64,000 nucleotides of DNA from assembly GCA_028712175.1 (NCBI GenBank), contig JAQTQQ010000001.1, positions 96,992 through 160,991 of the forward strand, given 5' to 3'. Position numbers and translations under genes: made by a program. Origin of the DNA: Candidatus Omnitrophota bacterium. GTDB taxonomy: Bacteria; Omnitrophota; Gorgyraeia; Gygaellales; Profunditerraquicolaceae. This document shows, in pieces, positions 2,840-16,025 of this stretch; position 1 is the stretch's first letter, and every line of letters begins with the position of its first letter. The notes beneath the pieces were generated by a model. It saw only the letters and a program-made list of their open reading frames with translations, did no database searches and had not been told where the DNA came from.

Positions 2840-3025
2840 ATGTCCAAGAGAACTCTTTTAGCAATTTTTCTTTTTGTTTTTATTCTTTCAGCCAGCGGAT
2901 GTACTGTTGTTAAGGGTATAGGAGGCGCTGCCTGTGGATTAGGCAAGGGGGTAGCGGAAGGATTCAATGATGACGCAAACTTTATCAAAAAGGCTGATAG
3001 GTGGACGAAAGACAATCTTTGGTAA
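2840..3025 (+). CDS. small lipoprotein (61 aa)
   Basis: Signal peptide plus lipobox 'LSASGC', with a GGGGG RBS-like purine tract 6 nt upstream. Confidence 0.45.
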   Translation: MSKRTLLAIFLFVFILSASGCTVVKGIGGAACGLGKGVAEGFNDDANFIKKADRWTKDNLW

Positions 3026-3075
3026 TACCAGATTAGGAGCCAATTAATAATTGATTAGTTTTCTTTAGCAGAGTT

Positions 3076-3101
3076 AAGCCGGGCTTGCCCCGGCTTTTAT
3101 T
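3076..3101 (+). terminator. rho-independent terminator
   Basis: GCCGGG-CTTGC-CCCGGC hairpin (3078-3094) followed by TTTTATT. Confidence 0.6.
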
Positions 3102-3168
3102 CTAGCGATGTATTAGGCTTTACAGGTTTTCTAAAATCAGATATAATTATTCGCAAATTGCCTGCTAT

Positions 3169-3239
3169 TGCCCTGTCGTCTAATGGTAGGACACAAGATT
3201 CTGGATCTTGTTATCATGGTTCGAGTCCATGCGGGGCAG
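3169..3239 (+). tRNA. tRNA-Gln (anticodon CUG)
   Basis: Hand-folded cloverleaf. Acceptor stem is TGCCCTG/CGGGGCA with U1:A72 and discriminator G73, both Gln identity elements. D-stem is GTCT/GGAC. Anticodon stem is CAAGA/TCTTG with loop TTCTGGA, giving anticodon CTG. T-arm is CATGG-TTCGAGT-CCATG. CCA is not encoded. Confidence 0.8.
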
Positions 3240-3434
3240 TTAAGCCTGATGCGGCCCTAAGGGGCCTGCGCCAGGCTTATTTGTTTACGCATGGACTAGA
3301 ACCAAAGGGGGTGCGGGGGCCGCCCGCGCTTTCGGGGTGACACCCGCCACGCTTTTTGGCGGGGCCATAGGGGCAGAGCCCCTTTGGGGAGGAGCGATAG
3401 TGACGACTGGTTCGAGTCCATGCGGGGCAGTTAA
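3218..3434 (+). repeat. 27-bp direct repeat (tRNA-Gln 3' end duplicated 190 bp downstream) bracketing a terminator hairpin and a GC-rich structured segment
   Basis: 'tggttcgagtccatgcggggcagttaa' occurs at 3218-3244 and again exactly at 3408-3434. The intervening ~165 bp is far more GC-rich than the surrounding DNA. Confidence 0.7.
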
Positions 3435-3506
3435 TTTTTTTAGTCATTTGCAGCAATGCATCCAGAGAATTTTTGCATAAAACCGGGTAGCAGGAAAGGA
3501 GTGGTT

Positions 3507-3980
3507 ATGAGAATAATCTTGATTTTATTGCTTTACGCTCTTTTATTCAACACTTCATTATCCATGGCCAATGAAGAAGCTAATAAATTAGGAAATGAAG
3601 GCATTCTACTGATCCAGAAAGGAAAAATTGATGCAGGCCTGGATTTGATGAAGCAGGCCACTCAAATCTCTCCCGACGACGCTTCCTGGCATATGAATTA
3701 CGGAAGCATGCTTTTTACAAAAGGCCAGCAAATTTTTCAATCCGGCAATAAACAAGATGCCGATGGCGTATTAAAAGAGGCGGAAGAAGAGCTGTTGTTA
3801 GCGGTAGACCTATTTAAAACCAATGACTTTATGCTCATAAGCCAATGTTATTTTTTGATCGGAGACATCTATTTTTACGCCTATAGTAACAAAAACCAGG
3901 CAAAAATTTTTTATCAGAAGTCTTTAGGCTATTATCCGGAACATGGCGGCGCAATCGAAGCTATGAAACGGTATCAATAG
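3507..3980 (+). CDS. secreted TPR-like repeat protein
   Basis: The likely true start is the internal Met (MRIILILLLYALL...) because RBS GGAAAGGAG lies 7 nt upstream. It has a signal peptide and helical-repeat composition. Confidence 0.5.
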   Translation: MRIILILLLYALLFNTSLSMANEEANKLGNEGILLIQKGKIDAGLDLMKQATQISPDDASWHMNYGSMLFTKGQQIFQSGNKQDADGVLKEAEEELLLAVDLFKTNDFMLISQCYFLIGDIYFYAYSNKNQAKIFYQKSLGYYPEHGGAIEAMKRYQ

Positions 3981-4022
3981 GACTATATTTTAAGTTAAAG
4001 AAATTTATATCTAGTAAAATAT

Positions 4023-4283
4023 ATGGCGCAATCCAAGAAAGTTCAATCCTGGTATGTATATATTCTTAAGTGTAAGAATAGCAGCCTTTACACCGGTATA
4101 ACCAATAATTTACAGCGCAGGTTAAGCGTTCATCGTCAGGGTAAAGGTGCAAAATACACAAATTCCTTTGGAGTGCTTGGTATTGTTTACCGGAAGAAAT
4201 ATCCTACCAAACAAGAGGCACTTATGCAGGAAGCCCGGATCAAAAAGTTGACAAGAAAGGATAAACTCGCTTTGATCAAGTGA
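4023..4283 (+). CDS. GIY-YIG nuclease family protein (UPF0213-like)
   Basis: 'WYVYILKCKNSSLYTGITNNLQRRLSVHRQGKGAKYT' is a canonical GIY-YIG core, in an 86-aa protein. Confidence 0.7.
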   Translation: MAQSKKVQSWYVYILKCKNSSLYTGITNNLQRRLSVHRQGKGAKYTNSFGVLGIVYRKKYPTKQEALMQEARIKKLTRKDKLALIK

Positions 4284-4465
4284 GGCGGGTAGTTATTATA
4301 AATAAACCCCATATTCATTGCTGCTTCGTTGTTTAATTCCCGCCCCCAGAGCTATTTTGCCCAGATTAGAAAGCTTGTTTAATTTGAAGTTGCTTGTATA
4401 ATTAAAATTATAGGTTCTCCAGTTTAATCATATTTATATGTATTATTAGGTGAGGATAGTCTTAT

Positions 4466-5938
4466 ATGATACCGGTTGAGAATATTTTATTTTTGGTCGC
4501 TATATTGATTTTCTTAAGCGTTATTTCAAGCAAGCTTTCCGATAAGTTTGCCATTCCCGTATTGCTGATCTTTTTAACAATTGGGATACTCGCCGGTTCA
4601 GAAGGGCTGGGAGGGCTTTATTTTAACAATGCACAATTAGCCAAGTCTATCGGGATCGTTGCCCTTATTTTTATTATTTTCTCCGGAGGTTTCGATACAA
4701 ACTGGAAGGAGACAAGGTCGGTTGTCTGGCCGGGAATTATCCTTTCAACAGCAGGAGTTTTACTGACCGCAATAATAACCGGTTTTTTTGCCGTCTATAT
4801 TTTAAAATTTTCTTTATTGCAGGGCTTGCTTTTAGGTTCGATAGTTTCCTCAACCGACGCCGCAGCCGTATTCAGTATTTTGAGATCTAAAAGAATAAGC
4901 CTAAAAAAACCCCTGAAACAGTTGCTTGAGCTTGAATCTGGCAGCAACGATCCCATGGCGGTATTTTTGACCGTCGGTTTTATCAGCGTCTTGACGGTAA
5001 AAAACATGACTATTCTGGCTTTAATTCCCAGATTCATATTGGACATGGGGATGGGGGCTTTGACGGGGTATCTAATGGCGAAATTTATACTTTTCTTTAT
5101 CAAGCGCCTCAAGCTGGAATATGAAGGCCTGTATCCTGTAATAATGCTTTCCTTTGTCCTGATGACTTACACTGTAGCCGTTTTTTTAAAAGGCAACGGG
5201 ATTCTTGCGGTGTATATTACCGGATTAATGCTGGGGCAGGTGGATTTTCCGAATAAAAGGATGATTATGAGGTTTCATGACGGCCTGGCCTGGCTCATGC
5301 AGATTGTCATGTTTGTGACATTAGGTTTATTGGTTTTTCCTTCGCATATTGTCCCGTTTATAGGATCAGGTTTGTTGCTTACGCTTCTTCTCATGGTGGT
5401 TGCCCGGCCGGTTAGCGTATTCTTATGCCTTCTGCCGTTTAATATGACCATTCAGAAAAAGGCAATGGTTGCCTGGGTTGGCCTTAGGGGCTCGGTCCCT
5501 ATTATCCTGGCGACGTTTCCTTTTATGGCAGGTATACCGCAAGCAGGCACGATTTTTAATATCGTATTTTTTGTCGTTATTGCATCAGTTTTTATTCAAG
5601 GAACATCTATCCCGATAGTCTCGAGAATATTAAAACTGGATATTCCCTGGACCAATAAGATAAATTATCCCATTGAATTTGAAAAAACAAAGGCTGTCGA
5701 TGCGGATTTGGCAGATATTATTGTGCCTTATGATTCTGTGGCTGTGGGGAAAAGCTTAGGCGCTTTAAGCGTTCCCCAGAAGTGCCTGATTGTGCTTATT
5801 TCCCGCGAAGGTAGATTTGTTATACCATCAGGCTCTACTATTATAGAGGGCGGGGATGTTTTATTGGTTCTTGCCAATGAAGCCGATTTTTCTGCTTTCC
5901 AACAAACAGTCTCCCAGCTTAAGAACAAGGAAGATTAG
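4466..5938 (+). CDS. nhaP2: K+/H+ antiporter, NhaP2/CvrA-type (CPA1) with C-terminal TrkA-C domain
   Basis: N-terminus 'IPVLLIFLTIGILAGSEGLGG...GSIVSSTDAAAVFSIL' closely follows the CvrA/NhaP2 pattern. It has about 11 TM segments and a C-terminal regulatory domain. Confidence 0.7.
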   Translation: MIPVENILFLVAILIFLSVISSKLSDKFAIPVLLIFLTIGILAGSEGLGGLYFNNAQLAKSIGIVALIFIIFSGGFDTNWKETRSVVWPGIILSTAGVLLTAIITGFFAVYILKFSLLQGLLLGSIVSSTDAAAVFSILRSKRISLKKPLKQLLELESGSNDPMAVFLTVGFISVLTVKNMTILALIPRFILDMGMGALTGYLMAKFILFFIKRLKLEYEGLYPVIMLSFVLMTYTVAVFLKGNGILAVYITGLMLGQVDFPNKRMIMRFHDGLAWLMQIVMFVTLGLLVFPSHIVPFIGSGLLLTLLLMVVARPVSVFLCLLPFNMTIQKKAMVAWVGLRGSVPIILATFPFMAGIPQAGTIFNIVFFVVIASVFIQGTSIPIVSRILKLDIPWTNKINYPIEFEKTKAVDADLADIIVPYDSVAVGKSLGALSVPQKCLIVLISREGRFVIPSGSTIIEGGDVLLVLANEADFSAFQQTVSQLKNKED

Positions 5939-6019
5939 AGGTATTCTCCGCAGGTTCCCCGAAGAGTATCACTTGAGGTATTAATGAAAAGTAGTATAAT
6001 AAAAACATTAGGTCAATAA

Positions 6020-6072
6020 GCGGCCTGGGATCCATAAGCATTTCCAGTGGATTATTTAGATGACCGGGCCGC
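6020..6072 (+). promoter_or_regulatory. GC-rich imperfect hairpin in the nhaP2-otsA intergenic region
   Basis: A 9-bp stem GCGGCCTGG / CCGGGCCGC encloses a sub-hairpin GGATCCA...TGGATTA. Such a GC stem is unusual in this AT-rich genome. Confidence 0.3.
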
Positions 6073-6123
6073 CATCTTGCAAGAGTGACGCAGGATGGCA
6101 TTTTATTTTTAAGGGGGAAGTAG

Positions 6124-8358
6124 ATGAAAAGACTGCTTTTGTTTATTCTGCCGATTTTAATCATTGTCTCCGTTGCTTTTACGGTATTTGGGATTATCCA
6201 AATACGTTCCGAAGAAGAAAACCTTATGGATGACCTTAAAAGAAAGGCGAGGACGGTTGCAGAAAGCGTCGAATTATCTGCAAGATATGTGTTTATTAAT
6301 AACGATTTAAAATTAGCCAAAAGGCTGGTTGAGAGTTTTCAAAAAAGAGAACGGATGCAGGGGTGTGTTCTTTACGGCCAAGACGGCCAGGTTCTGGCCA
6401 TTACGGAACGCATATCAGATTTGATTCAGAAGGACAGGCCTTATCTAAAAGAAGTTTTAAATTCTAAGAATCCCCGCGGGGCAATAGAGAAATTTGGTGA
6501 TTATTCGGTATACAGTTATATCCTTCCGGTTCCAGGAGAGGATGGCGCCGTGTTGGGCATGGTAGAAATTATCTATGATACCTCCTATCTGTTTACTACT
6601 TTAGCCGAGCTATGGAAAAGGATAAGCATAACATTAATTGCTTTAATAGTGTTTATAGCTACAGTTGCTTTATTAATCCAAAGGCAGATTTTTATCCTGC
6701 CTGTACGCCGGCTTACCCAATGGTTTACGCATTTTCAAAAAGGGGAAATTGAAAAACTGAGGCCATTTGAAGAGAAAGGGGAGTTTGGCAAGTTCATAAG
6801 CGAGGTTGAGCAGGTCGCTTTAGGGTTAAGGGTCGCCAGAAAAGTTGTTACTGAAGAGGCGCATGTGCGTATTAAAGAAGAACTCTGGACGGAGAATAAA
6901 CTGCGCGATCTTATCCGCGCCAAATTAGGTGAAAATGCTTTTTTTGTGGTCTCTAACCGGGAGCCTTATATGCATGTTTTAGATGAGGTAACCGGTTTAC
7001 CTAAATGTACGCGCCCGGCAAGCGGAGTTGTTACCGCGATAGACCCGATTCTGCGCGCTTGTGGCGGGACATGGATTGCGCATGGAAGCACTGCAGCGGA
7101 TAAGAAGTTTGTTAATTCCAAGAACAAGCTTGGCGTTCCGCCAGAAGATAACCGTTATATCCTTAAAAGAGTATGGCTCACGAAAGAAGAAGAGGACGGT
7201 TATTACTATGGTTTTTCCAACGAAGGCCTCTGGCCGCTTTGCCATGTAACACATACCCGCCCAATATTCAGGGAAACTGACTGGCAGATGTATAAAAAAG
7301 TTAATCAGAAATTTGCCGATAGCGTATTAGAAGAGCTTCCGGCCAAAGATCCGTTTATTTTTATCCAAGACTATCATTTTACCCTGCTTGCCGCAATGAT
7401 TAAAGAACAAAGGCCCGATGCGAGAATAGCTTTATTCTGGCATATTCCTTGGCCTAACCCGGAAGTTTTTGCGATTTGCCCTTATCAGCAGGAGATACTC
7501 AACGGAATGCTTGCTTGCGACTTAATCGGATTTCATGTTCAGGTACATTGCAATAATTTTCTCGATACCGCAAACCGGCTGATTGAATGCCGCGTTGATA
7601 CGGAAAAATTCAGCGTAGTTAGGGCCAATAAGGAAACATCCATCAAGGCTTTTCCGATCAGCGTTGATGGTTATATGAAAGATAAAACAATACAATCCGA
7701 ATTTATGCAGGTAGATAAGATTAAGCAGGAATTCCAGTTAGAGGATAAAATAGTGGCGGTTGGAGTAGACAGAATCGATTATACAAAAGGGCTCATTGAA
7801 CGGGTCCTTGCCGTTGATAGATTTTTAGAGAAATACCCTGAATACAAGAATAAATTTGTATTTATTCAGTTAGCCGCCCCCAGCCGGACGCATATAAAAC
7901 GCTATCATGATCTAATCGGCGAACTTGATGAGCTGATAGAAAAAAAGAACTGGAAGCATTCCGAAGGGGCTTGGAAACCGATAATTTATTTAAAGAGGCA
8001 TTTTTCTCCGGAGGATATAAGCCCGTATTATTTGCTTGCGGATTTATGCATTGTCAGTTCCTTACACGACGGGATGAACTTGGTGGCTAAAGAATATGTT
8101 GCTTCAAATAGCGCTTTAAACGGCGTATTATTGCTCAGCCGTTTTACAGGTGCCGCCAAGGAATTAACCGATGCCGTGCAGATAAATCCGTATTCAATAG
8201 AAGAATTTGCCGATGCAATAAAGTTTGCCGTTGAAATGCCGCATGAAGAAAGAAAAAGACGCATGGAGAATATGCGCAAGATAATCACAGAAAATAATAT
8301 TTACCGCTGGGCCGGGGATATAATTACGGAATTAACCTCGATAAAGAAGGCTGTCTGA
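6124..8358 (+). CDS. otsA: trehalose-6-phosphate synthase (GT20) fused to N-terminal TM-sensor-TM-HAMP module
   Basis: The C-terminal 480 aa carry GT20/OtsA motifs 'VVSNREPY', 'GFSNEGLWPLCH', 'FIQDYHF', 'FWHIPWPNPEVF', 'GVDRIDYTKGL' and 'DGMNLVAKEYVA'. The N-terminal 260 aa are TM1, a ~150-aa periplasmic domain, TM2, and a HAMP-like 'ILPVRRLTQWF...EKGEFGKFISEVEQVALGL'. Confidence 0.85.
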   Translation: MKRLLLFILPILIIVSVAFTVFGIIQIRSEEENLMDDLKRKARTVAESVELSARYVFINNDLKLAKRLVESFQKRERMQGCVLYGQDGQVLAITERISDLIQKDRPYLKEVLNSKNPRGAIEKFGDYSVYSYILPVPGEDGAVLGMVEIIYDTSYLFTTLAELWKRISITLIALIVFIATVALLIQRQIFILPVRRLTQWFTHFQKGEIEKLRPFEEKGEFGKFISEVEQVALGLRVARKVVTEEAHVRIKEELWTENKLRDLIRAKLGENAFFVVSNREPYMHVLDEVTGLPKCTRPASGVVTAIDPILRACGGTWIAHGSTAADKKFVNSKNKLGVPPEDNRYILKRVWLTKEEEDGYYYGFSNEGLWPLCHVTHTRPIFRETDWQMYKKVNQKFADSVLEELPAKDPFIFIQDYHFTLLAAMIKEQRPDARIALFWHIPWPNPEVFAICPYQQEILNGMLACDLIGFHVQVHCNNFLDTANRLIECRVDTEKFSVVRANKETSIKAFPISVDGYMKDKTIQSEFMQVDKIKQEFQLEDKIVAVGVDRIDYTKGLIERVLAVDRFLEKYPEYKNKFVFIQLAAPSRTHIKRYHDLIGELDELIEKKNWKHSEGAWKPIIYLKRHFSPEDISPYYLLADLCIVSSLHDGMNLVAKEYVASNSALNGVLLLSRFTGAAKELTDAVQINPYSIEEFADAIKFAVEMPHEERKRRMENMRKIITENNIYRWAGDIITELTSIKKAV

Positions 8359-8360
8359 TT

Positions 8361-9158
8361 ATGAAGTACCTGTTTGGCCAACCTGCGAGAATAGAAAAAC
8401 TGTTAAATGGCAGGTTTGTTTTTATTTTACTGGATTATGACGGGACATTGGTTCCTATCGCAAAAACTCCCCAAAAGGCAGTTATTCCGGAAGGGACCAA
8501 AGAGTTGTTACGGAAACTATCCAAGAGGCAAGATCGTGCAATTGGCATTATTAGCGGTAGGGCGCTTGGGGACATAAAGAGAGCCGTAGGGATAAAAAGT
8601 ATTATTTATGCCGGTAACCATGGCTTGGAAATACAAGGCCCGGATATTAGAGCGCAGCGCCAGGTGTCTTTACGGATAAAGCCGGTTATGCGCGATATCG
8701 CCGCAGAATTGAGAAGGCGGCTTTTACCCGTAAAAGGGGTTTTGATAGAAGATAAAGGGCTGACCTTAAGTATTCACTATCGTTTGGTTAAGAAGAATGA
8801 TCTGCCGGTTTTTAAGAAAATTTTTTTCAAGACAAGCAACCCTTATATTCGTGCCGGAAAAATTAAGTTAAATTCCGGCAAGAAGGTTTATGAAATAAAG
8901 CCGCCGGTTAAATGGGACAAAGGAAAAATTGTTTTGTGGCTTGCGTCCAGGCGGCAATTTGCTTCAGGGGAAAATAGGGTTTTACTTGTTTATATCGGAG
9001 ATGACCTAACCGATGAAGATGCGTTTAAAGCCTTAAGCGGAAAAGGCCTAACGATATTTGTCGGAAAGCCGAGAAATTCCGCAGCGGATTATTACTTAAA
9101 AAACACAAAAGAAGTATTGGAGTTTTTGTATCTAATGCTTAAACTTAAGAAAAGATAA
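8361..9158 (+). CDS. otsB: trehalose-6-phosphate phosphatase (HAD family)
   Basis: HAD motif I 'ILLDYDGTL' and 'GDDLTDEDAF'. Its start overlaps the otsA stop. Confidence 0.8.
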   Translation: MKYLFGQPARIEKLLNGRFVFILLDYDGTLVPIAKTPQKAVIPEGTKELLRKLSKRQDRAIGIISGRALGDIKRAVGIKSIIYAGNHGLEIQGPDIRAQRQVSLRIKPVMRDIAAELRRRLLPVKGVLIEDKGLTLSIHYRLVKKNDLPVFKKIFFKTSNPYIRAGKIKLNSGKKVYEIKPPVKWDKGKIVLWLASRRQFASGENRVLLVYIGDDLTDEDAFKALSGKGLTIFVGKPRNSAADYYLKNTKEVLEFLYLMLKLKKR

Positions 9159-9161
9159 ATC

Positions 9162-9833
9162 ATGCCGGAATTAATAAAAGCAAAAGAACCGTTTACTTTT
9201 CGTACCAGACTGCATTTATCGGAGCTGACCGGTTTGCGGGCGACTACCTTAGGCCAGCTTCTGGACATTATCAGGAGTGTGCCGGGTTCTTGCATTTACC
9301 ACCATACGCATAGATTTCTACAGCAACATCAGTATCTTTCTCCGGAGCCTCCTAATGACTTTGCCTACTGGGTGACCGATATTCTCGGAGAGGACGAACT
9401 TGGAGAAATGCTGGTTAGTATCGATACAATGCAATATTCGGCTATTCGTGATTTACGGGAGAAGATTGCATCTACCATCGAGAACTATCTGAAAGATAAC
9501 CCGCTGGCTAAATTGAAATTTGCCCGTTCCGGGGAGGAGTTTCATTTTATCAAATCGGTTAGTTTTGTTTTATCAACAAATTATATTGCGCATGATTTAA
9601 ATGAATTTGCGCAGATTTTAAAAAAAGTGACCATAGACTCCATTTATTTTCATATTTTTGAAGCGCGCCTTAGGCTTGAGAAACAGACAAATGATTTTTC
9701 ATACTGGATAGAAAATTCTTTGGGGGACAAAGAGTTAGCGGGCAAGATTTCCGGTTTTGACCCATACACGCACGCCTTAGAGGATCTAAGGAATAAGCTT
9801 GTGCGTATGATTGAAAGAAAGATAGCTGGCTAA
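9162..9833 (+). CDS. hypothetical protein with internal duplication
   Basis: Two related ~70-aa repeats, 'NDFAYWVTDILGEDELGEM...AIRDLREKI' and 'NDFSYWIENSLGDKELAGK...ALEDLRNKL'. The gene is embedded between otsB and the treT-like gene. Confidence 0.4.
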   Translation: MPELIKAKEPFTFRTRLHLSELTGLRATTLGQLLDIIRSVPGSCIYHHTHRFLQQHQYLSPEPPNDFAYWVTDILGEDELGEMLVSIDTMQYSAIRDLREKIASTIENYLKDNPLAKLKFARSGEEFHFIKSVSFVLSTNYIAHDLNEFAQILKKVTIDSIYFHIFEARLRLEKQTNDFSYWIENSLGDKELAGKISGFDPYTHALEDLRNKLVRMIERKIAG

Positions 9834-11048
9834 ATGGCAAAAATAGAAGAATATATCCCTATCGTGGGCCAACCTATTGTTGATGATTTAAGGTTGCTTG
9901 GCGATAAATTAAAAGGAAAAGTTGTGCAGCATATAAATTCTACCCCCGTAGGCGGAGGGGTAGCGGAGATATTAAACCGCATGGTTCCGATGTTAAGGGA
10001 GCTCGGGGTAGATACTAAATGGGATGTAATAAAAGGCGGCGAGCAATTTTTTGAAGTGACAAAGAAATTCCATAATGCCCTGCACGGCAGAACTGAAGAA
10101 ATAAGCAGAAGGGATTTTGAAGTATTCATGGAAACAAGCCAGCAGAATATTGAAGATGTTGATACTTACGGAGATATTGTTTTTGTCCATGACCCCCAGC
10201 CGATAGCTTTAATAAAAAAGAAAGCAGGCAATAAATGGCTTTGGAGATGCCATATTGATGTATCTAACCCGAATGAGAAAGTCTGGGGTTTCCTTATGGA
10301 TTTTATCGTTAAATACGATTCGGCGGTATTTTCTGCTCCTGCTTTTTCGCGTAAATTGCCTATCAGGCAGTTTTTAATTTCTCCGTCCATAGATCCTCTT
10401 AGCGATAAAAATAAAGAATTGCCCGAAGAAATAATAGATTCGGTTTTAAGAAAATATGACATTAAGAAAGATAAACCGATAATCACCCAGATCTCCCGTT
10501 TTGACCGCCTTAAAGATCCCGTAGGCGTAATCGAGGCTTATCAGAAGGTAAAAAAATATAGCGATTGCCAGTTGATTTTGGCCGGAGGCACTGCTGAGGA
10601 TGACCCTGAAGGGTTTAAGGTTCTTGGAGAGGTAAAGGAGAAAGCCAAGGATGACCCCGATGTGCATATTTTGCTGTTATCTCAAAACGATATAGAGGTC
10701 AATGCTTTACAAAGGGCATCGGATGTAATCATCCAGAAATCTCTTAGGGAGGGGTTTGGTTTGACGGTTTCAGAGGCGCTCTGGAAAGCAAAGCCCGTTG
10801 TAGCTTCAAATGTCGGGGGCATTCCCCTGCAGATAAAACATAAATATTCGGGGTTATTGTGCCATTCTGTAGAAGGAGCGAGTTTTGCGATTAAGCAGCT
10901 TTTAAACAGCCCAGGGTATGCCAAAAGGCTGGGAGAGAACGGCAGAGAACATATAAAAAATAATTTTCTAATCACGCGGCATTTAAGGGATTATATGTTA
11001 TTATTTCTTTCTTTATATTACCCGGAAGACGTCGTTTATCTATACTAG
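9834..11048 (+). CDS. treT: GT4 glycosyltransferase, trehalose glycosyltransferring synthase (TreT)-like
   Basis: 'HINSTPVGGGVAEIL', 'FHNALHG', 'VHDPQPIAL', 'WLWRCHIDVS', 'SPSIDPLSDKN', 'KPIITQISRFDRLKDP' and 'QRASDVIIQKSLREGFGLTVSEALWK' match the TreT pattern as I recall it. The context is otsAB. Confidence 0.55.
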   Translation: MAKIEEYIPIVGQPIVDDLRLLGDKLKGKVVQHINSTPVGGGVAEILNRMVPMLRELGVDTKWDVIKGGEQFFEVTKKFHNALHGRTEEISRRDFEVFMETSQQNIEDVDTYGDIVFVHDPQPIALIKKKAGNKWLWRCHIDVSNPNEKVWGFLMDFIVKYDSAVFSAPAFSRKLPIRQFLISPSIDPLSDKNKELPEEIIDSVLRKYDIKKDKPIITQISRFDRLKDPVGVIEAYQKVKKYSDCQLILAGGTAEDDPEGFKVLGEVKEKAKDDPDVHILLLSQNDIEVNALQRASDVIIQKSLREGFGLTVSEALWKAKPVVASNVGGIPLQIKHKYSGLLCHSVEGASFAIKQLLNSPGYAKRLGENGREHIKNNFLITRHLRDYMLLFLSLYYPEDVVYLY

Positions 11049-11241
11049 TTTAATTTAGTAAAGGTTTTATCCATAGGCATTTTGTTGCGCCTCAAGCATT
11101 TGCAAGCCATCTTGCTAAAGAAAGCGGGATGGCGTTTTATTAAAGAACAGGGTTTGCTCGTTGCGATATTAAAATACTATTGAAGGTATTTCATTATGGG
11201 CTATAATAACTTATCAGCATAATAGACAGGAGGTTTTAGAT

Positions 11242-11874
11242 ATGTTTAATTTATTAATAAAGGGCGGATTGGTCATGATCCCGATAACCTTAGGGTCAAT
11301 TTTTGGCCTGGCGATAGTATTAGAGAGGCTTTGGGTTTTTAAAAGCTTGAAATCTATTGATAACCATGAATTTACACAGAAAATCTTTAGGGCGATAAAA
11401 GGCAATAAGCTTTCCGAAGCGCTCCAGATGTGCGAAAAGAATATTTTTTCGCCTCTAGCTGTAATCCTTAAAATAGGGATTGAAAGGAGATCCTTGTCTC
11501 CGGAAAGATTGGAAAAAGTGTTAGAGCAGGTGGGGAACAACCAAATTCATAGGCTGGAAAGATACCTTGGGTTTCTGGCTACCATCATTGCTATAGAGCC
11601 TTTGTTGGGTTTTCTGGGTACGATCACCGGGCTTATCCGGGCCTTTATGTCCTGGGAGCACGCCGGAGCCAATATCACCGTTAACGCGCTTGCCGGAGGT
11701 ATTTATGAGGCAATGATTACTACTGCCGCAGGGCTTACCGTGGCTATTCCGCTTTATCTTTTTTATAATTATTTTATTAACCATATAAAATATATTGCCA
11801 ATGATCTTAATAATTATTCTATCCAGTTAATAGAGATTATTTCCGAAGGGAAACAGGCAGAAACTAATAAATAA
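11242..11874 (+). CDS. MotA/TolQ/ExbB family proton-channel protein
   Basis: 210 aa with 3 TM segments and the conserved C-terminal TM pair. Confidence 0.7.
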   Translation: MFNLLIKGGLVMIPITLGSIFGLAIVLERLWVFKSLKSIDNHEFTQKIFRAIKGNKLSEALQMCEKNIFSPLAVILKIGIERRSLSPERLEKVLEQVGNNQIHRLERYLGFLATIIAIEPLLGFLGTITGLIRAFMSWEHAGANITVNALAGGIYEAMITTAAGLTVAIPLYLFYNYFINHIKYIANDLNNYSIQLIEIISEGKQAETNK

Positions 11875-11878
11875 AACA

Positions 11879-12298
11879 ATGAAAATTTCCGGTAAGCGTA
11901 ATTATATGCTAAGCCTTGAATCCGTAGTAATGACGGATATTGTGCTGAACATGTTTATTTTCTTTTTTATTTCTTTCAGCTTGCTTTATACCTTTGAACC
12001 TTTCCGGGCGCAAAAATTGGAAATAAAATTGCCGAAGGCGTCAAATACTACTCCTATAGGAGAAGAGGAACAGCTATCTGTTACTCTTACTAACGAAGGG
12101 GCACTTTATCTTGGCAAAGAATTAATTACTGTCAAAGACCTTCAAAACAGAATTTCCCTAAGGTATAAAAATAACCCACGGCTTAGCGTGGTATTGCGTG
12201 CAGACAGGCTTGTACGTTTTAAGCAGGTAGTAAATATTCTGGATATTTTAAGCGGTCTGGGTATAACCAGGCTTAATATCGCGGCTGTGCAAGAATAG
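11879..12298 (+). CDS. ExbD/TolR family biopolymer transport protein
   Basis: 139 aa with a single N-terminal TM and an ExbD-like periplasmic domain. It is coupled to the upstream gene. Confidence 0.7.
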   Translation: MKISGKRNYMLSLESVVMTDIVLNMFIFFFISFSLLYTFEPFRAQKLEIKLPKASNTTPIGEEEQLSVTLTNEGALYLGKELITVKDLQNRISLRYKNNPRLSVVLRADRLVRFKQVVNILDILSGLGITRLNIAAVQE

Positions 12299-12300
12299 CC

Positions 12301-12636
12301 TTAGCTGCCGGCTAAATTTAAATCAGCAAGGCGCTTGATTTTTAAGCCGCTTGTTCCGTCGTCATAGTAAGTGACTGTAACCGGGTCTGATTGCAGGATG
12401 TCGGATAGAGAAATTGAGTGAGTTCCTTTGCGCATAATTGAATCACTGGTAACCTTCAGGTTTATTTCATCGGCATTAATGCTAAAGTCGGGATAGAAAC
12501 GCACGGTAAGGGTTGAGCTGACCCAGTCTATGTCTACAACAATGCCGGATACAGTTTTTTCCTGCGTTACCTGCGCGGTTAAAGAGGCGGCAAAAAATAA
12601 AATTATCAGTAATAAGGCAGCACACCTTTTCTTCAT
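12301..12636 (-). CDS. small secreted hypothetical protein
   Basis: Signal peptide 'MKKRCAALLLIILFFAASLTAQ'. Confidence 0.4.
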   Translation of the reverse strand: MKKRCAALLLIILFFAASLTAQVTQEKTVSGIVVDIDWVSSTLTVRFYPDFSINADEINLKVTSDSIMRKGTHSISLSDILQSDPVTVTYYDDGTSGLKIKRLADLNLAGS

Positions 12637-12669
12637 AATAATATTATATTACATAAAATTAAAATTACT

Positions 12670-13431
12670 ATGAAAATTATAAAGCGTATAATCTTTATCC
12701 TTGGTATTTTGTCCCTAGTTATTGTTGTTTTGGTGTCTGCTGTTTTTTTTGTAGCCAAACATATCAGGATAAAGGATATAGTGGAAAATGAAATTGAGCG
12801 CAGCCTTGGTATTAATGTTACGATTGGGGAAATTTCATTTTCTCCGCTTTTGGTGCATATTGGGTTAAAAAGCGTTATTATTCATAACCCCGAAGGCTTT
12901 ATTGAGGACGAACTGGCTTATATAGAATACCTGCATTTTGTTTTTGACCCCATAGAAGTCCTTAGCAGGCCAAGGCCTAATATTTACCTTACGGCCATTG
13001 ATTTAAAACGCCTGAATATTATAAAAAATAAATCCGGGAAGATAAACTTAAAAGAGCTTACTCCTGTTAAAGGGAGCTCTTCTGCCGAGAATTCACAGGT
13101 GCCTTTTTATTTTGATGTTGTGGTTTTAAATGTCGGCGAAGTGCAGTATATAGACTATAGCGCCCCGGTTAAAAAGGTAACTAAATATAATATCGGTATA
13201 AAAGAAGCCGCGTTCGTCGGCCTGAAAGATGAAAATGCGGTTGTGAAGATGATTGTTTATAAAGCCATCCAGAATACAGATATCGGTAAACTCATTAATC
13301 TGACTGTAACCCCTGTTTTTTCAGCCATAAACGATACCGTGGACGCGGCTTGGAGTACAGCTAAAATTGGTTCAAAAGGAATCTGGCAGATCGGCACCAT
13401 GCCCATTAAACTGATTTTTGGGGATAAATAA
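12670..13431 (+). CDS. membrane-anchored hypothetical protein
   Basis: N-terminal TM helix followed by a beta-rich body. Confidence 0.4.
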   Translation: MKIIKRIIFILGILSLVIVVLVSAVFFVAKHIRIKDIVENEIERSLGINVTIGEISFSPLLVHIGLKSVIIHNPEGFIEDELAYIEYLHFVFDPIEVLSRPRPNIYLTAIDLKRLNIIKNKSGKINLKELTPVKGSSSAENSQVPFYFDVVVLNVGEVQYIDYSAPVKKVTKYNIGIKEAAFVGLKDENAVVKMIVYKAIQNTDIGKLINLTVTPVFSAINDTVDAAWSTAKIGSKGIWQIGTMPIKLIFGDK

Positions 13432-13454
13432 TAGAGGTAGAGGGAAATTTTAAG

Positions 13455-16025
13455 ATGTCAAATGAAACAAATCCCGCCAACATCCAGTGGCTTAGTGAAA
13501 AAGAAGCTTTAGAGAATTTAAAGAAATACGGCTACAACGAAATTCCTTCCCAAAAGAAACGCAATATCATTTTCATATTCTTGGGCGTAGTCAAAGAACC
13601 GATGCTGCTTTTATTAATCGCAGCCGGTTTAATTTACTTATTTTTAGGGGAAGCCTCAGATGCCCTGATGCTGCTTGCTTTTGTTTTGGTTGTAGTTGGC
13701 ATTACTTTTTACCAGGAAAGAAAAACCGAAAGGACTCTTGAGGCCTTAAGCGAACTTTCTAGCCCCAGGGCTTTGGTTATCCGTGACGGCATACAAAAAA
13801 GGATTGCCGGCCGCCAGGTGGCCAAGGATGATATTATTATCCTTAAAGAAGGGGACCGTATTCCCGCCGACGCCTTAGTTTTATCCTGCTCTAATTTATT
13901 AGTGGACGAATCTTTATTAACTGGTGAGTCTATGCCCGTGCGCAAATCTGAATCAAGTAAGGATGATCCGGATAATAGGCCCGGAGGGGATGATCTGCCC
14001 TTTGTTTATTCAGGGACATTGGTTGTGCAGGGCTGGGGTACAGCAAGAGTAATTTCTGTGGGCTCACAAACTGAAATGGGCAAAATCGGACGCGCCTTGA
14101 AGGGTATCTGCCAAGAGGATACTCTGCTACAGAAGGAAATAAGAAAAATTGTGCGTAATTTTTCTATTTTTGGGCTGACGCTTTGTTTGCTGGTTACGGT
14201 AATTTACGGTTTATCCCGGAGCGACTGGTTAAACGGGATACTCGCCGGCCTAACTTTGAGTATGGCTATGCTGCCAGAAGAATTTCCCTTAGTTTTAATT
14301 ATATTCCTCACTTTAGGGGCTTGGAGGATTTCTAAGAGCCATGTTCTTGCCAGGTCTACACCGGCTGTAGAGACTTTGGGTGCTGCCACCGTTTTGTGTA
14401 CAGATAAGACAGGTACGCTTACTTTAAATGCTATGCGTTTAGTTTCTCTTTGTGTCGACGGAAGTTTTTATGATCTTGAGGCAGAAGGCTGCGATATTTT
14501 ACCCGAGGCAGTGCATGATCTTATTGAATACGGTATTTTAGCCAGCCAGAAGGATCCATTTGACCCGATAGAAAAAGAAGTAAAACGCCTGGGCGAATTT
14601 TATCTGCTGGGTTCTGAACATATCCATAATAACTGGAAGATTATTAAGGAGTATCCATTATCAAGGCAGCTGCTTGCTTTGTCTCATGTTTGGGAGTCAC
14701 CGGATAAACTTAATTACGTTATTGCGGCTAAAGGGGCACCTGAAGCAATTGCTGATCTCTGTCATTTTAATAAGGAGCAGCATCTTGAATTGATTGAATG
14801 CATCGAAGGGATGACCAGGAAGGGTTTGCGTGTTTTAGGAGTGGCCAGGGCGACTTTCCGGAGAAAGGAATTGCCGGATTTACAGCATGATTTTATATTT
14901 AAGTTTGTGGGTTTGCTGGGATTTGTCGATCCGGTGCGGCCAGATGTTTCCTCCGCTATTAAAGAGGCTTATGAAGCAGGTATTCGCGTAGTTATGGTCA
15001 CCGGAGATTACCCGGGCACCGCTATTAATATTGCAAGAGAGATCGGTTTGAAAAATCCAGATGCTTGTATTACCGGTCCGGAGCTGGAAAATATGAGCCA
15101 TGCCTTGCTAAGAGAAAAAATAAAAACAATCAATATATTTGCCCGCGTGGTTCCTGAGCAGAAGCTGTTTATTGTTGATGCGCTTAAGGCTAATAGAGAA
15201 GTTGTAGCGATGACCGGAGACGGGGTTAATGACGCCCCGGCGTTAAAATCAGCCAATATCGGTATTGCTATGGGAGAGCGGGGGACAGATGTTGCGCGTG
15301 AGGCATCGGCGCTGGTTTTGCTCAATGATGATTTTTCTTCTATAGTGCAGGCGGTAAAAATCGGAAGGAGGATCTTTGATAACTTAAAAAAGGCAATCGC
15401 TTATATTTTTGCGATACATGTACCGATAGCTGGGATGTCATTTTTACCGGTTTTATTTAATTTACCGATTGCGTTGTTGCCTGCGCATATTGCTTTTCTA
15501 GAATTAATTATCGACCCTGCGTGTTCTACGGTTTTTGAGGCCTGTCCGGAAGAAAAAAACATTATGAACCGCCCTCCGCGTAATTTAGCCGAATCTTTGT
15601 TCGGGAAGAAAACTTTTATTTTTAGCCTTTTCCAAGGGTTGGGCATATTGACGGCTGTCTTTTTGGTATTTGTAATAGCGTTATATTTCAAGAAGGGGGA
15701 GCTGGAGGCGCGCACACTGTCTTTTGCAACTCTTGTGTTTGCGAATCTAATGTTAATTGTAACCAATCTTTCATGGTCTAAGAATTTAACAGGCATTATT
15801 AAACTGAAGAATAAAGCATTATGGCTGGTAGCCGCAGCAGCTGTAGGTGCCTTGTTTTTAGTTGTATATCTTCCGGCGCTGCGGAATCTTTTTCATTTCT
15901 CGGTTTTATCCGTGTTTGATTTATTTATTGCTTTTCTTTGCGGTACAATTAGCCTGTTGTGGTTCGAAGTTTTTAAGGCGCTTAAAAAGCAGGTAAGTAA
16001 CAAACCTATCAACCGGCCAATTTGA
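13455..16025 (+). CDS. cation-transporting P-type ATPase (type II, Ca2+/Mg2+-like)
   Basis: Phosphorylation motif 'DKTGTLT', 'KGAPE', and hinge 'MTGDGVNDAPALK'. 856 aa with 10 TM segments. Confidence 0.85.
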   Translation: MSNETNPANIQWLSEKEALENLKKYGYNEIPSQKKRNIIFIFLGVVKEPMLLLLIAAGLIYLFLGEASDALMLLAFVLVVVGITFYQERKTERTLEALSELSSPRALVIRDGIQKRIAGRQVAKDDIIILKEGDRIPADALVLSCSNLLVDESLLTGESMPVRKSESSKDDPDNRPGGDDLPFVYSGTLVVQGWGTARVISVGSQTEMGKIGRALKGICQEDTLLQKEIRKIVRNFSIFGLTLCLLVTVIYGLSRSDWLNGILAGLTLSMAMLPEEFPLVLIIFLTLGAWRISKSHVLARSTPAVETLGAATVLCTDKTGTLTLNAMRLVSLCVDGSFYDLEAEGCDILPEAVHDLIEYGILASQKDPFDPIEKEVKRLGEFYLLGSEHIHNNWKIIKEYPLSRQLLALSHVWESPDKLNYVIAAKGAPEAIADLCHFNKEQHLELIECIEGMTRKGLRVLGVARATFRRKELPDLQHDFIFKFVGLLGFVDPVRPDVSSAIKEAYEAGIRVVMVTGDYPGTAINIAREIGLKNPDACITGPELENMSHALLREKIKTINIFARVVPEQKLFIVDALKANREVVAMTGDGVNDAPALKSANIGIAMGERGTDVAREASALVLLNDDFSSIVQAVKIGRRIFDNLKKAIAYIFAIHVPIAGMSFLPVLFNLPIALLPAHIAFLELIIDPACSTVFEACPEEKNIMNRPPRNLAESLFGKKTFIFSLFQGLGILTAVFLVFVIALYFKKGELEARTLSFATLVFANLMLIVTNLSWSKNLTGIIKLKNKALWLVAAAAVGALFLVVYLPALRNLFHFSVLSVFDLFIAFLCGTISLLWFEVFKALKKQVSNKPINRPI

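Follow-up and report, generated by a model that had tools for sequence, protein, structure and literature searches.

The open reading frame at 6124..8358 on the plus strand of the window (the whole stretch of 64,000 nucleotides analysed here, from a Candidatus Omnitrophota bacterium) begins with ATG and encodes a protein of 744 amino acids, in which a transmembrane sensor with a HAMP domain is fused to a GT20 trehalose-6-phosphate synthase, exactly the fused frame that the original prediction had placed there. We regard this architecture, its homology and its conservation as practically certain, and we consider it fairly probable that the protein is a receptor crossing the inner membrane twice, with an enzyme as its output, and that it gates the synthesis of trehalose-6-phosphate (T6P) on an envelope or osmotic signal. 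The arrangement is common in Omnitrophota and undescribed in the searchable literature: searches for a Cache/HAMP-GT20 fusion, DUF5752 and OrfY found no description, in agreement with the earlier view that a HAMP joined to a metabolic glycosyltransferase is unusual. Papers on Omnitrophota go no further than noting that trehalose can be synthesised (PMC8542988).

The protein is already covered by a database entry, P0094, 100% identical to it over the whole frame and labelled only as a trehalose-6-phosphate synthase (title, 'MAG: trehalose-6-phosphate synthase [Candidatus Omnitrophica bacterium]'). Full-length relatives formed more than 120 clusters of 741–770 aa (plus one of 733 aa and one of 864 aa), with 74–85% identity from end to end. 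The original prediction had described the fusion as in frame and had proposed to look for it in relatives; the N-terminal module and GT20 were found contiguous and in frame in 75/75 related loci that extend far enough, derived from different assemblies and phyla. The module is present in at least 258 species genomes, the majority of them from Omnitrophota, the family members found being uncultured MAGs throughout, and the fusion is nearly universal among the sampled Omnitrophota operons. Given the identical database protein, the full-length clusters and the in-frame loci, chance or an assembly chimera is excluded as its source. Regarding the start codon, a Shine-Dalgarno (SD) sequence, AAGGGGG, was read at 6111..6117 (+), separated by 6 nt from the ATG (6124). 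A start at a methionine just before GT20 had been named as what would speak against the fusion; the sole methionine near GT20, M283, lies within the domain and has no SD. Because of the strong SD and of this location of the next candidate, Met1 is the true start.

Hydropathy analysis (Kyte-Doolittle, 19-residue window) revealed only two peaks of membrane grade. The first one, TM1, at residues ~4-26 (6133..6201, +; hydropathy up to 2.98), agrees with the predicted ~5-25 and lies within a continuous helix, residues 2-59, in the AF2 models (pLDDT 82–84). The second, TM2 (peak of 2.98), had also been anticipated, at ~175-195; its existence was borne out, and its position moved about 8 residues nearer to the N-terminus, to ~167-187 (6622..6684, +), within an AF2 helix (154-205) that runs unbroken through the membrane into the first HAMP helix (AS1). 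The order of elements along the models is TM1 and stalk, 5-stranded alpha/beta unit, TM2-AS1, connector, AS2, linker helix and GT-B.

Residues ~27-166 (6202..6621, +), between the two TM helices, make up an extracytoplasmic domain of ~140 aa, close to the ~150 aa foreseen, consisting in the models of a stalk helix and then the 5-stranded alpha/beta unit. Its predicted fold, with a long N-terminal helix, a PAS-like five-stranded sheet and flanking helices, corresponds to a single-Cache/PDC domain, and the question of whether the periplasmic part is Cache/CHASE-like was answered in this sense by AF2 secondary structure and Foldseek. The latter matched the sensor domains of WalK, CitA, KinD, DcuS and DctB, with E values down to 4.5e-7 and target TM-scores of 0.7–0.76 (4ywz of WalK, E = 4.5e-7, TMt 0.71; 2j80 of CitA, TMt 0.74), and aligned the entire TM-sensor-TM-HAMP part with the WalK model over 260 columns (E = 2.7e-11). 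A PDB profile match to 5is1 was also obtained, and the NCBIfam HK_WalK match was limited to the N-terminal residues 5-245. In Pfam, the window protein stayed under the gathering scores of sCache_3_2 (PF17203; 17.1 vs. 28.4 bits) and dCache_3 (17.0 vs. 25.7 bits), and 32/41 relatives matched sCache_3_2 at E <= 0.1, the best at 2.5e-6.

Within this periplasmic domain, 33/140 positions are conserved at >=95%. Conserved polar and aromatic residues (R75, E76, R77, Q79, C81, Y84, T94, R96, Y130, Y132, E148, D152-Y155) lie on the predicted sheet strands, and those of RERxQGC, YSY and DTSY belong to the GT20-fusion family and are absent from the homologous kinases. As they are not common to the kinases, these residues point to a dedicated ligand or interface.

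The HAMP-like segment of the original prediction (ILPVRRLTQWF...VALGL, residues 191-235), directly C-terminal to TM2, is part of a divergent HAMP domain at residues ~188-240 (6685..6843, +), with AS1 at 190-206, the connector at 207-219 and AS2 at 220-240. Two amphipathic helices with a connector of about 14 residues start straight after the end of TM2 (~187). The Pfam scan that was to find HAMP and GT20 in one protein gave the GT20 half (PF00982, E = 2.9e-120), whereas PF00672 had no match in the window protein at E <= 1 over its whole length or at E <= 10 for the isolated 71-aa segment. The homology itself stood, being established by profile-profile matches to kinases, Pfam matches in relatives and the WalK fold match. 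By hhalign, the segment aligned column-for-column over residues 186-237 with HAMP histidine kinases (99.75% probability, E = 2.6e-27), Pfam recognising residues 186-245 of these reference kinases as HAMP (E values between 2.6e-7 and 1.3e-15), and BLASTP matched the kinases P0300 and P0332 at 2e-12 and 7e-15. Among relatives, PF00672 was matched by 21/41 at E <= 0.1, with a best value of ~2e-6 (2.2e-6); the GT20 fusion P0308 reached 26.5 bits, above the gathering score of 25 bits, and the consensus of the fusion family 21.1 bits. Weak profile matches were also found to the Af1503 HAMP structures (residues 191-238).

The invariant HAMP residues of the kinases coincide with P193, L197, G207, E220 and L235 and include the canonical signalling residues, these being the proline in AS1, the glycine at its end and the glutamate at the start of AS2. 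Heptad a/d cores could be followed through AS1 (190/194/197/201/204) and AS2 (221/224/228/231/235/238). Mean column conservation reached 0.86 in AS1 and 0.89 in AS2, compared with 0.84 in GT20 and 0.78 in the periplasmic domain, making HAMP the best-conserved part of the N-terminus, with helices that match the catalytic domain; the whole N-terminal module showed 59–84% identity, vs. 41–61% for OtsB. The HAMP of the window protein is divergent but genuine. A degenerate HAMP could also be a purely structural dimerisation element, a possibility that speaks against a regulatory reading.

Between HAMP and enzyme, a conserved helical linker was recognised at residues 241-272 (6844..6939, +) from AF2 models and conservation. 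It consists of an extension of AS2 to ~249-253 and a helix at 257-268, with the invariant pattern W255-T256-x2-K259-L260-x2-L263-x2-A266-x2-G269 and 10/32 positions conserved at >=95%. In the models, it leads straight into beta-strand 1 of GT20, the helix ending 4 residues before that strand and 11 residues before the arginine of the SNR motif, R279, which corresponds to the acceptor-phosphate ligand R9 of E. coli OtsA. Classical OtsA lacks this linker, its alignment to the fusion protein beginning at ~residue 265.

The GT20 domain, OtsA-like and located at residues 273-738 (6940..8337, +), is complete, as had been predicted, with PF00982 matching at 402.6 bits (cut-off, 32.5) over profile positions 3-472 of 473, an alignment over the full GT20 length with OtsA of M. 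thermoresistibile (structure 5jij; E = 1e-80) and GT-B secondary structure in the AF2 models. Residue alignment to 5jij showed intact motifs VSNREP, YYGFSNEGLWPLCH, QDYHF, FWHIPWP, GVDRIDYTKG, APSR and HDGMNLVAKEYV, in keeping with the conserved OtsA set (SNR, GFSNxxLWPLxH, DYH, HIPxP, GVDRxDYxKG, PSR, DGMNLVAKEY), and 237/466 positions of the domain are conserved at >=95% in the family. The domain is in all likelihood catalytically competent. TIGR02400 was the top single-function GT20 model, with GgpS TIGR02398 behind at 312 bits; since its OtsA equivalog cut-off was missed (423.4 vs. 564.85 bits), the exact substrates can only be inferred, and the motifs together with the neighbouring OtsB suggest those of a trehalose-6-phosphate synthase.

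The fusion otsA heads a tight operon, otsA-otsB-orfY(DUF5752)-treT. The trehalose-6-phosphate phosphatase gene otsB (8361..9158, +; Trehalose_PPase, E = 9e-42; TIGR00685, 175.2 bits vs. a cut-off of 68.05) starts after a gap of 2 nt and is downstream of otsA in 65/80 related loci. It is followed by a gene for a putative regulator of the DUF5752/OrfY-like type (9162..9833, +; DUF5752, E = 6e-69; E = 1.3e-23 to the T. tenax PDB entry 4cso, 'OrfY protein, transcription factor'), present in 62/80 loci, and by treT (9834..11048, +), coding for a trehalose glycosyltransferring synthase (TreT_GT1, E = 6e-55, plus Glycos_transf_1; NF041139, 382 bits, under cut-off), a second trehalose route found in 61/80 loci. 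An MscS channel gene adjoins in 34/80 related loci and is absent from the operon of this window. Upstream, the window carries a Na+/H+ exchanger gene with a TrkA_C domain, and no matching exchanger was found next to otsA in any of the 80 related loci. No periplasmic partner gene was conserved in the operon across these loci.

Concerning the function of the fusion, the N-terminal module was probably taken over from sensor histidine kinases of an sCache-HAMP lineage, with GT20 in place of the HisKA/HATPase output. The protein would dimerise through its TM and HAMP helices, like HAMP receptors, and a signal at the Cache domain or the membrane would alter the packing of HAMP; through the linker, the binding of the acceptor, the closure of the lobes or the oligomeric state of GT20 could then change, T6P synthesis would be switched post-translationally, and OtsB would convert T6P into trehalose. 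We lean towards a sensor module that regulates catalysis. As to the more specific proposal, that HAMP allosterically gates a metabolic GT-B enzyme and that an osmotic or ligand stimulus switches trehalose synthesis in seconds, without transcription or phosphorelay, our judgement is evenly divided. The outputs of HAMP are normally helical and dimeric, and we know of no precedent for the control by HAMP of a GT-B enzyme with its active site inside one chain, for which reasons the coupling step from HAMP to GT20 is speculative. Hyperosmotic or ionic/envelope stress is the favoured class of stimulus. That the cue is osmotic is held tentatively, the link being circumstantial because MscS is absent from the operon of the window; it is plausible, and consistent with the context, that the synthesis of a compatible solute is controlled directly and possibly by osmolarity.

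The alternative that survives best is that of an enzyme resembling a chemoreceptor, in which the Cache domain binds a specific extracellular small molecule (for instance a sugar or organic acid, or a metabolite derived from host or prey) and the cue is chemical, not osmotic. This is a variant of the receptor reading with another stimulus. CitA, DcuS, DctB and KinD are among the structural matches, and such single-Cache/PDC domains bind carboxylates; the conserved polar and aromatic residues on the sheet strands are, in addition, specific to the family. The operon partners, namely MscS in 34/80 loci and the trehalose routes, speak instead for osmotic physiology, and we judge a chemical cue possible, though doubtful.

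A passive membrane anchor or dimerisation scaffold, holding an OtsA dimer at the membrane or by MscS with no signal, and with Cache and HAMP as structural relics, seems to us unlikely, slightly more so than a chemical cue. It would agree with a HAMP too divergent for Pfam in the window protein, with the sub-threshold Cache matches and with the lack of a known ligand for this Cache domain; to our knowledge, several Cache-type sensor domains, including that of WalK, the best fold match, have no established small-molecule ligand. However, a folded periplasmic domain of 140 aa with 33 near-invariant positions is not needed for tethering, and, in at least 258 species, conservation of the HAMP helices equals that of the catalytic domain, with their canonical proline, glycine and glutamate kept and with a nearly invariant linker helix behind them.

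Signalling from the inside out, with GT20 sensing a sugar nucleotide or T6P and transmitting outwards through HAMP to a periplasmic partner, is very improbable. HAMP can transmit in both directions, as in LapD, and the extracellular domain of WalK, the best structural match, acts through partner proteins; against this, the catalytic motifs are all intact, otsB lies 2 nt downstream, which makes an enzymatic role the simplest one, and the operon holds no conserved periplasmic partner gene. Finally, an annotation artefact, that is, a soluble OtsA starting near GT20 behind a separate gene, a pseudogene or a chimera, found no support and is refuted by the frame open from Met1 with its strong SD, the position of M283 inside GT20 without an SD, the more than 120 independent full-length clusters and the in-frame junction in 75/75 loci, leaving it with a negligible chance.

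Comparison with known systems places the receptor-like input of the fusion protein closest to the TM-sCache-TM-HAMP histidine kinases of the WalK/YycG type (P0274, P0300, P0305, P0306, P0332), whose input module is homologous and collinear. These kinases end in HisKA and HATPase_c, whereas the fusion protein ends in GT20, without phosphorelay or response regulator. No Pfam matches to HisKA/DHp or HATPase_c were found in it, GT20 filling the output position; it is no kinase, sharing with the sensor kinases the input module alone. HAMP-coupled transmembrane enzymes with direct output are known in class III adenylyl cyclases (M. tuberculosis Rv3645), HAMP-GGDEF cyclases and HAMP-PP2C phosphatases. 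They are likewise one-protein receptors, with HAMP between membrane and catalytic domain, and the signal would act directly on activity in both cases. Their catalytic domains, in contrast, produce second messengers or target signalling proteins, with active sites at a helix-fed dimer interface, whereas the fusion protein carries a GT-B enzyme of primary metabolism that produces a compatible-solute precursor at a single-chain active site.

On the side of the enzyme, classical soluble OtsA (E. coli 1gz5/1uqt; M. thermoresistibile 5jij) is alike over the full length of GT20 and in its motifs but lacks the N-terminal extension; mycobacterial OtsA is reportedly regulated by soluble metabolites. Control of GT20 enzymes through the N-terminus is known from the autoinhibitory N-terminus of plant TPS1 and from the yeast TPS complex, and the Synechocystis GT20 enzyme GgpS is activated by salt. 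These systems share with the fusion a GT20 governed by an N-terminal extension or by ionic conditions; unlike it, they are soluble, have no TM/HAMP signalling and show no sequence relation to its N-terminus. The msc-gt-tpsp operon of Thermoproteus tenax with its TPSP-GT trehalose synthase complex, for which a model of osmotic stress with activation of TPS at the protein level was proposed (Zaparty et al. 2013, PMC3634074), is similar in this protein-level control, in the clustering with an MscS-type channel (34/80 loci here), and in having an OrfY-like protein and TreT. There, a soluble glycosyltransferase partner activates a TPS-TPP fusion, with no membrane sensor or HAMP (PMC3634074).

The family is large, with hundreds of protein clusters in addition to the species genomes counted above, and because its members are annotated only as "trehalose-6-phosphate synthase", their regulatory half has been invisible in genome interpretations of this uncultured phylum. 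If the receptor reading is true, the protein would stand for a new class of transmembrane receptors that work as single proteins, widening the output repertoire of HAMP beyond signalling domains and into primary metabolism. In textbooks, the partners to which HAMP receptors relay signals are kinases, the tips of chemoreceptors and cyclases that make second messengers. Coupling of HAMP to a glycosyltransferase of central stress metabolism would show the same relay driving a structurally unrelated GT-B enzyme, raising the question of how a four-helix bundle controls a Rossmann enzyme of two lobes. Direct control by a sensor in the membrane would, moreover, be rare for the synthesis of compatible solutes, as distinct from their uptake, and the protein would provide a testable protein-level osmosensor of solute synthesis beside the osmosensing transporters. 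In practice, a modular receptor-enzyme chimera with an easy assay (UDP release, trehalose) could serve studies of HAMP signalling and possibly as a biosensor scaffold.

In relation to expression of the operon, a promoter-like TTGAGG-16-TATAAT is present at 5973..6000 (+), a consensus match only, the number of promoter-like sites in the region not being above chance. Immediately before the SD, a leader hairpin (10-bp stem, 9-nt loop) with a U-run is located at 6071..6109 (+; leader fold z = -3.09), which may either terminate the upstream gene or act as an attenuator in the leader. No riboswitch or known RNA was detected in the leader, as Rfam at E <= 0.1 over 3000-13000 gave only a tRNA. A further hairpin, terminator-like, of 11 pairs with a T-rich tail, follows treT at 11106..11143 (+). 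The possibility that these two hairpins are copies of a repeated element was rejected, their common 10-mer not being enriched in the window (6 matches vs. 4 expected); the operon likely ends at the hairpin behind treT.

The open reading frame proposed at 6124-8358 of the forward strand was found at exactly those coordinates and encodes a protein of 744 aa. Its start codon at 6124 is well supported, as an AAGGGGG Shine-Dalgarno sequence lies at 6111-6117, 6 nt 5' of the ATG. A start just before that domain was ruled out, since M283, the sole methionine near it, is located inside GT20 and lacks a Shine-Dalgarno sequence. A Kyte-Doolittle scan of the fusion protein (19-residue window) showed membrane-grade peaks at two sites only, residues ~4-26 and ~167-187; thus, TM1 and the loop of ~140 aa between the helices are as originally predicted, and TM2 is present too, but about 8 residues more N-terminal than the 175-195 assigned to it.

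Residues 273-738 matched Pfam Glyco_transf_20 (E = 2.9e-120) over profile positions 3-472 of 473, and this domain aligned end to end with the OtsA structure of M. thermoresistibile (5jij, E = 1e-80), as well as with further OtsA structures. In these alignments, all the substrate-binding motifs were intact (VSNREP, YYGFSNEGLWPLCH, QDYHF, FWHIPWP, GVDRIDYTKG, APSR, and HDGMNLVAKEYV), so that full profile coverage and motifs bear out the claim of a complete OtsA catalytic domain fused in frame. The protein missed the NCBIfam OtsA equivalog cut-off (423 vs 565 bits). As OtsA was nevertheless the best-scoring single-function model (423 bits, with 312 bits for glucosylglycerol-phosphate synthase), and as the gene 2 nt downstream encodes a trehalose-6-phosphate phosphatase scoring above threshold, the product is, judging from sequence, most likely trehalose-6-phosphate.

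The HAMP segment of the original prediction gave a mixed outcome. A direct Pfam scan of the protein found no HAMP match, either in the whole protein (E <= 1) or in the isolated segment (E <= 10); residues 31-163 gave sCache_3_2, dCache_3, and CHASE8 matches, all of them sub-threshold, and in NCBIfam residues 5-245 weakly matched the WalK N-terminus. Taken by itself, the Pfam result would refute the HAMP segment by the note's own criterion, but four stronger lines of evidence overturn it, and the HAMP assignment stands on family, profile, and structure comparisons. Among 41 homologous N-termini (47-75% identical) scanned with Pfam, 21 matched PF00672 (best 2.2e-6), 32 sCache_3_2, and 30 dCache_1; the family consensus scored 21.1 bits for PF00672 vs a cut-off of 25 bits, which one divergent GT20 fusion, P0308, exceeded with 26.5 bits. 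When the N-terminal module by itself was used as a profile against a representative library of 1.84 billion proteins, it recovered 1,938 clusters (305 with E <= 1e-10), including true sensor kinases (P0274, P0300, P0306, and P0332). In these four, Pfam finds a significant HAMP (E between 1e-11 and 1e-15) where they align to window-protein residues ~186-245, and HisKA and HATPase_c follow. In BLASTP, residues 2-253 aligned with two of the kinases collinearly throughout (E = 2e-12 and 7e-15), and a profile-profile comparison of module and kinases reached 99.75% probability (E = 2.6e-27, 242 columns), with P193, L197, G207, E220, and L235 identical at the invariant HAMP positions of the kinases. 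Hydrophobic positions follow the 3-4 heptad spacing in both HAMP helices, AS1 (190/194/197/201/204) and AS2 (221/224/228/231/235/238/241), and the spacing extends past AS2 to about residue 254.

AlphaFold2 models of the full-length protein (pLDDT 81.9) and of its N-terminal 272 aa (pLDDT 83.7) presented a helix comprising TM1 and a stalk (residues 2-59), an alpha/beta unit of five strands (79-152), a continuous helix from TM2 into AS1 (154-205), a HAMP connector of 14 residues, a helix formed by AS2 and its extension (220-249/253), a linker helix (257-268), and finally the GT-B fold. With Foldseek, the N-terminal model matched the entire TM-sensor-TM-HAMP part of WalK (E = 2.7e-11, 260 columns) and, among extracellular Cache/PDC domains, those of WalK, KinD, CitA, DcuS, and DctB (target TM-scores reaching 0.76), which fits a Cache-like fold of the periplasmic domain. 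We conclude that the N-terminal part is an input module descended from histidine kinases, made up of a single Cache domain, two TM helices, and a HAMP, and its HAMP is, by sequence, a divergent one, especially in the window copy, where ELGKL has become EFGKF. This input module is common to WalK-type kinases, but Pfam finds HisKA and HATPase missing from the fusion protein, which is therefore not a kinase.

The fusion is widespread among relatives. An identical protein (P0094) is present in public databases, together with over 120 clusters, almost all with lengths of 741-770 aa and 74-85% identical over their full length. One genome was scanned for each GTDB species, and the module was encoded in at least 258 species, nearly all Omnitrophota (some of which bear a placeholder "Planctomycetales" label), with a few bins labelled Elusimicrobiota or Spirochaetes; the more divergent fusions include one Acidobacteriota MAG, and all members come from uncultured organisms. 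Of the 80 best loci, 75 extended far enough, and in every one of them module and GT20 were contiguous within a single reading frame, so the same fusion does recur in relatives. When the 150 nearest representatives of the module at 50% identity were examined, 58 ran on for at least 60 aa past it, carrying as outputs GT20 (32), kinase-like (7), or unclassified (19) sequences. One divergent GT20 fusion, P0223 (913 aa, Logan assembly), has ~160 extra residues N-terminal to the module with an SMP_2-like match, which suggests more architectural variants.

Across 70 full-length orthologues, the mean majority-residue frequency was 0.89 for AS2, 0.86 for AS1, 0.84 for GT20, 0.79 for both TM1 and the HAMP connector, 0.78 for both the periplasmic domain and the linker (residues 241-272), and 0.71 for TM2, with 33 of 140 periplasmic and 10 of 32 linker positions conserved at 95% or more. 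HAMP and linker are under strong purifying selection, and the sensor module is better kept (59-84% identity) than OtsB (41-61%). The main rival explanation, that the module is a passive anchor with a dimerisation role, is made less likely by this conservation pattern. Near-invariant periplasmic residues were F72, R75-E76-R77, Q79-G80-C81, Y84, T94, R96, Y130-S131-Y132, P135, G145, E148, D152-T153-S154-Y155, and W164; since most of them are absent from the homologous kinases, they suggest a putative ligand site or interface peculiar to the fusion family. Cys81 (codon 6364-6366, motif RERxQGC), the single cysteine of the periplasmic domain (6202-6621), was invariant in two of three family alignments, with conservation of 90% or more in the remaining one; the homologous kinase sensors lack it, and it may have a part in sensing a ligand or redox state.

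The gene thus encodes a membrane receptor with an intact enzyme as its output, within an operon devoted to trehalose. In the mechanism that we propose, the protein would form dimers by way of its TM and HAMP helices, HAMP packing would shift in response to a stimulus acting at the Cache domain or within the membrane, and the AS2 extension and near-invariant linker helix would relay the change to the GT20 N-lobe, altering acceptor binding, lobe closure, or oligomerisation. The C-terminal end of the linker helix (255-268, conserved residues W255, T256, K259, L260, L263, A266, and G269) lies 4 residues ahead of beta1 and 11 ahead of R279 in the SNR motif; R279 corresponds to the acceptor-phosphate ligand R9 of E. 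coli OtsA. The operon partners favour hyperosmotic or ionic stress as the class of stimulus; a specific ligand, considering the family-specific conserved pocket residues, is equally open.

HAMP adenylyl cyclases and HAMP-GGDEF proteins would share this working principle by analogy, and we classify the fusion as a HAMP receptor whose class of output is new. Like OtsA, it belongs to the GT20 enzymes, but it has a transmembrane sensor, which to our knowledge no characterised OtsA carries; no description of such a fusion was found in the literature searched, as distinct from architecture databases. The sequences themselves are already public, with fragments occasionally annotated automatically as "cache domain-containing protein" or "membrane protein affecting hemolysin expression"; what makes the fusion notable is its unrecognised regulatory half and the puzzle of how HAMP couples to a GT-B enzyme.

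The sensor-otsA gene (6124-8358) is the first of its operon, followed by otsB (8361-9158, after 2 nt), a DUF5752 gene (9162-9833, after 3 nt), and treT (9834-11048, without gap), an order that recurs in 61 or more of 80 loci. PDB 4cso, "OrfY protein, transcription factor", is a homologue of the DUF5752 protein (E = 1.3e-23), and a literature search on DUF5752 or OrfY found no paper; the DUF5752-TreT pair is very strongly conserved (57-88% identity, 61-62 of 80 loci), more than OtsB. In addition, 34 of 80 related loci (e.g., L010, 8250-9302, and L030, 4948-5994) have a gene for an MscS-type mechanosensitive channel beside otsA, placed ahead of otsB in ~16 of them and immediately upstream of otsA in ~18; the operon in the window has none. 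This clustering parallels the T. tenax msc-gt-tpsp operon, for which protein-level TPS activation and an osmotic-stress model were proposed (PMC3634074). A CPA1-type Na+/H+ exchanger gene with a C-terminal TrkA_C (4466-5938) lies directly upstream on the same strand, an arrangement not conserved beside otsA in the 80 related loci.

By consensus match only, a promoter-like site precedes the operon (5973-6000) and a strong, terminator-like hairpin follows treT (11106-11133). Another hairpin (6071-6109), with a 10-bp stem and a U-run, lies directly 5' of the otsA Shine-Dalgarno sequence, in a 131-nt leader that folds better than its shuffles (z = -3.09), and its 5' arm, GCCATCTTGC, recurs unchanged as the 5' arm of the hairpin after treT. 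This 10-mer was not enriched within the window, and no Rfam family matched; the leader hairpin could act either as an attenuator or to terminate the exchanger gene upstream. Ion-transport genes lie downstream of the operon (11242-16025); they encode a MotA/ExbB-family protein, a DUF748-like protein, and a P-type cation-transporting ATPase (856 aa). Finally, upstream of the exchanger gene, a tRNA gene (3169-3239) and a stand-alone GIY-YIG nuclease-domain ORF of 86 aa (4023-4283) were found, and GC content dips to 0.37-0.39 around 3500-5000.
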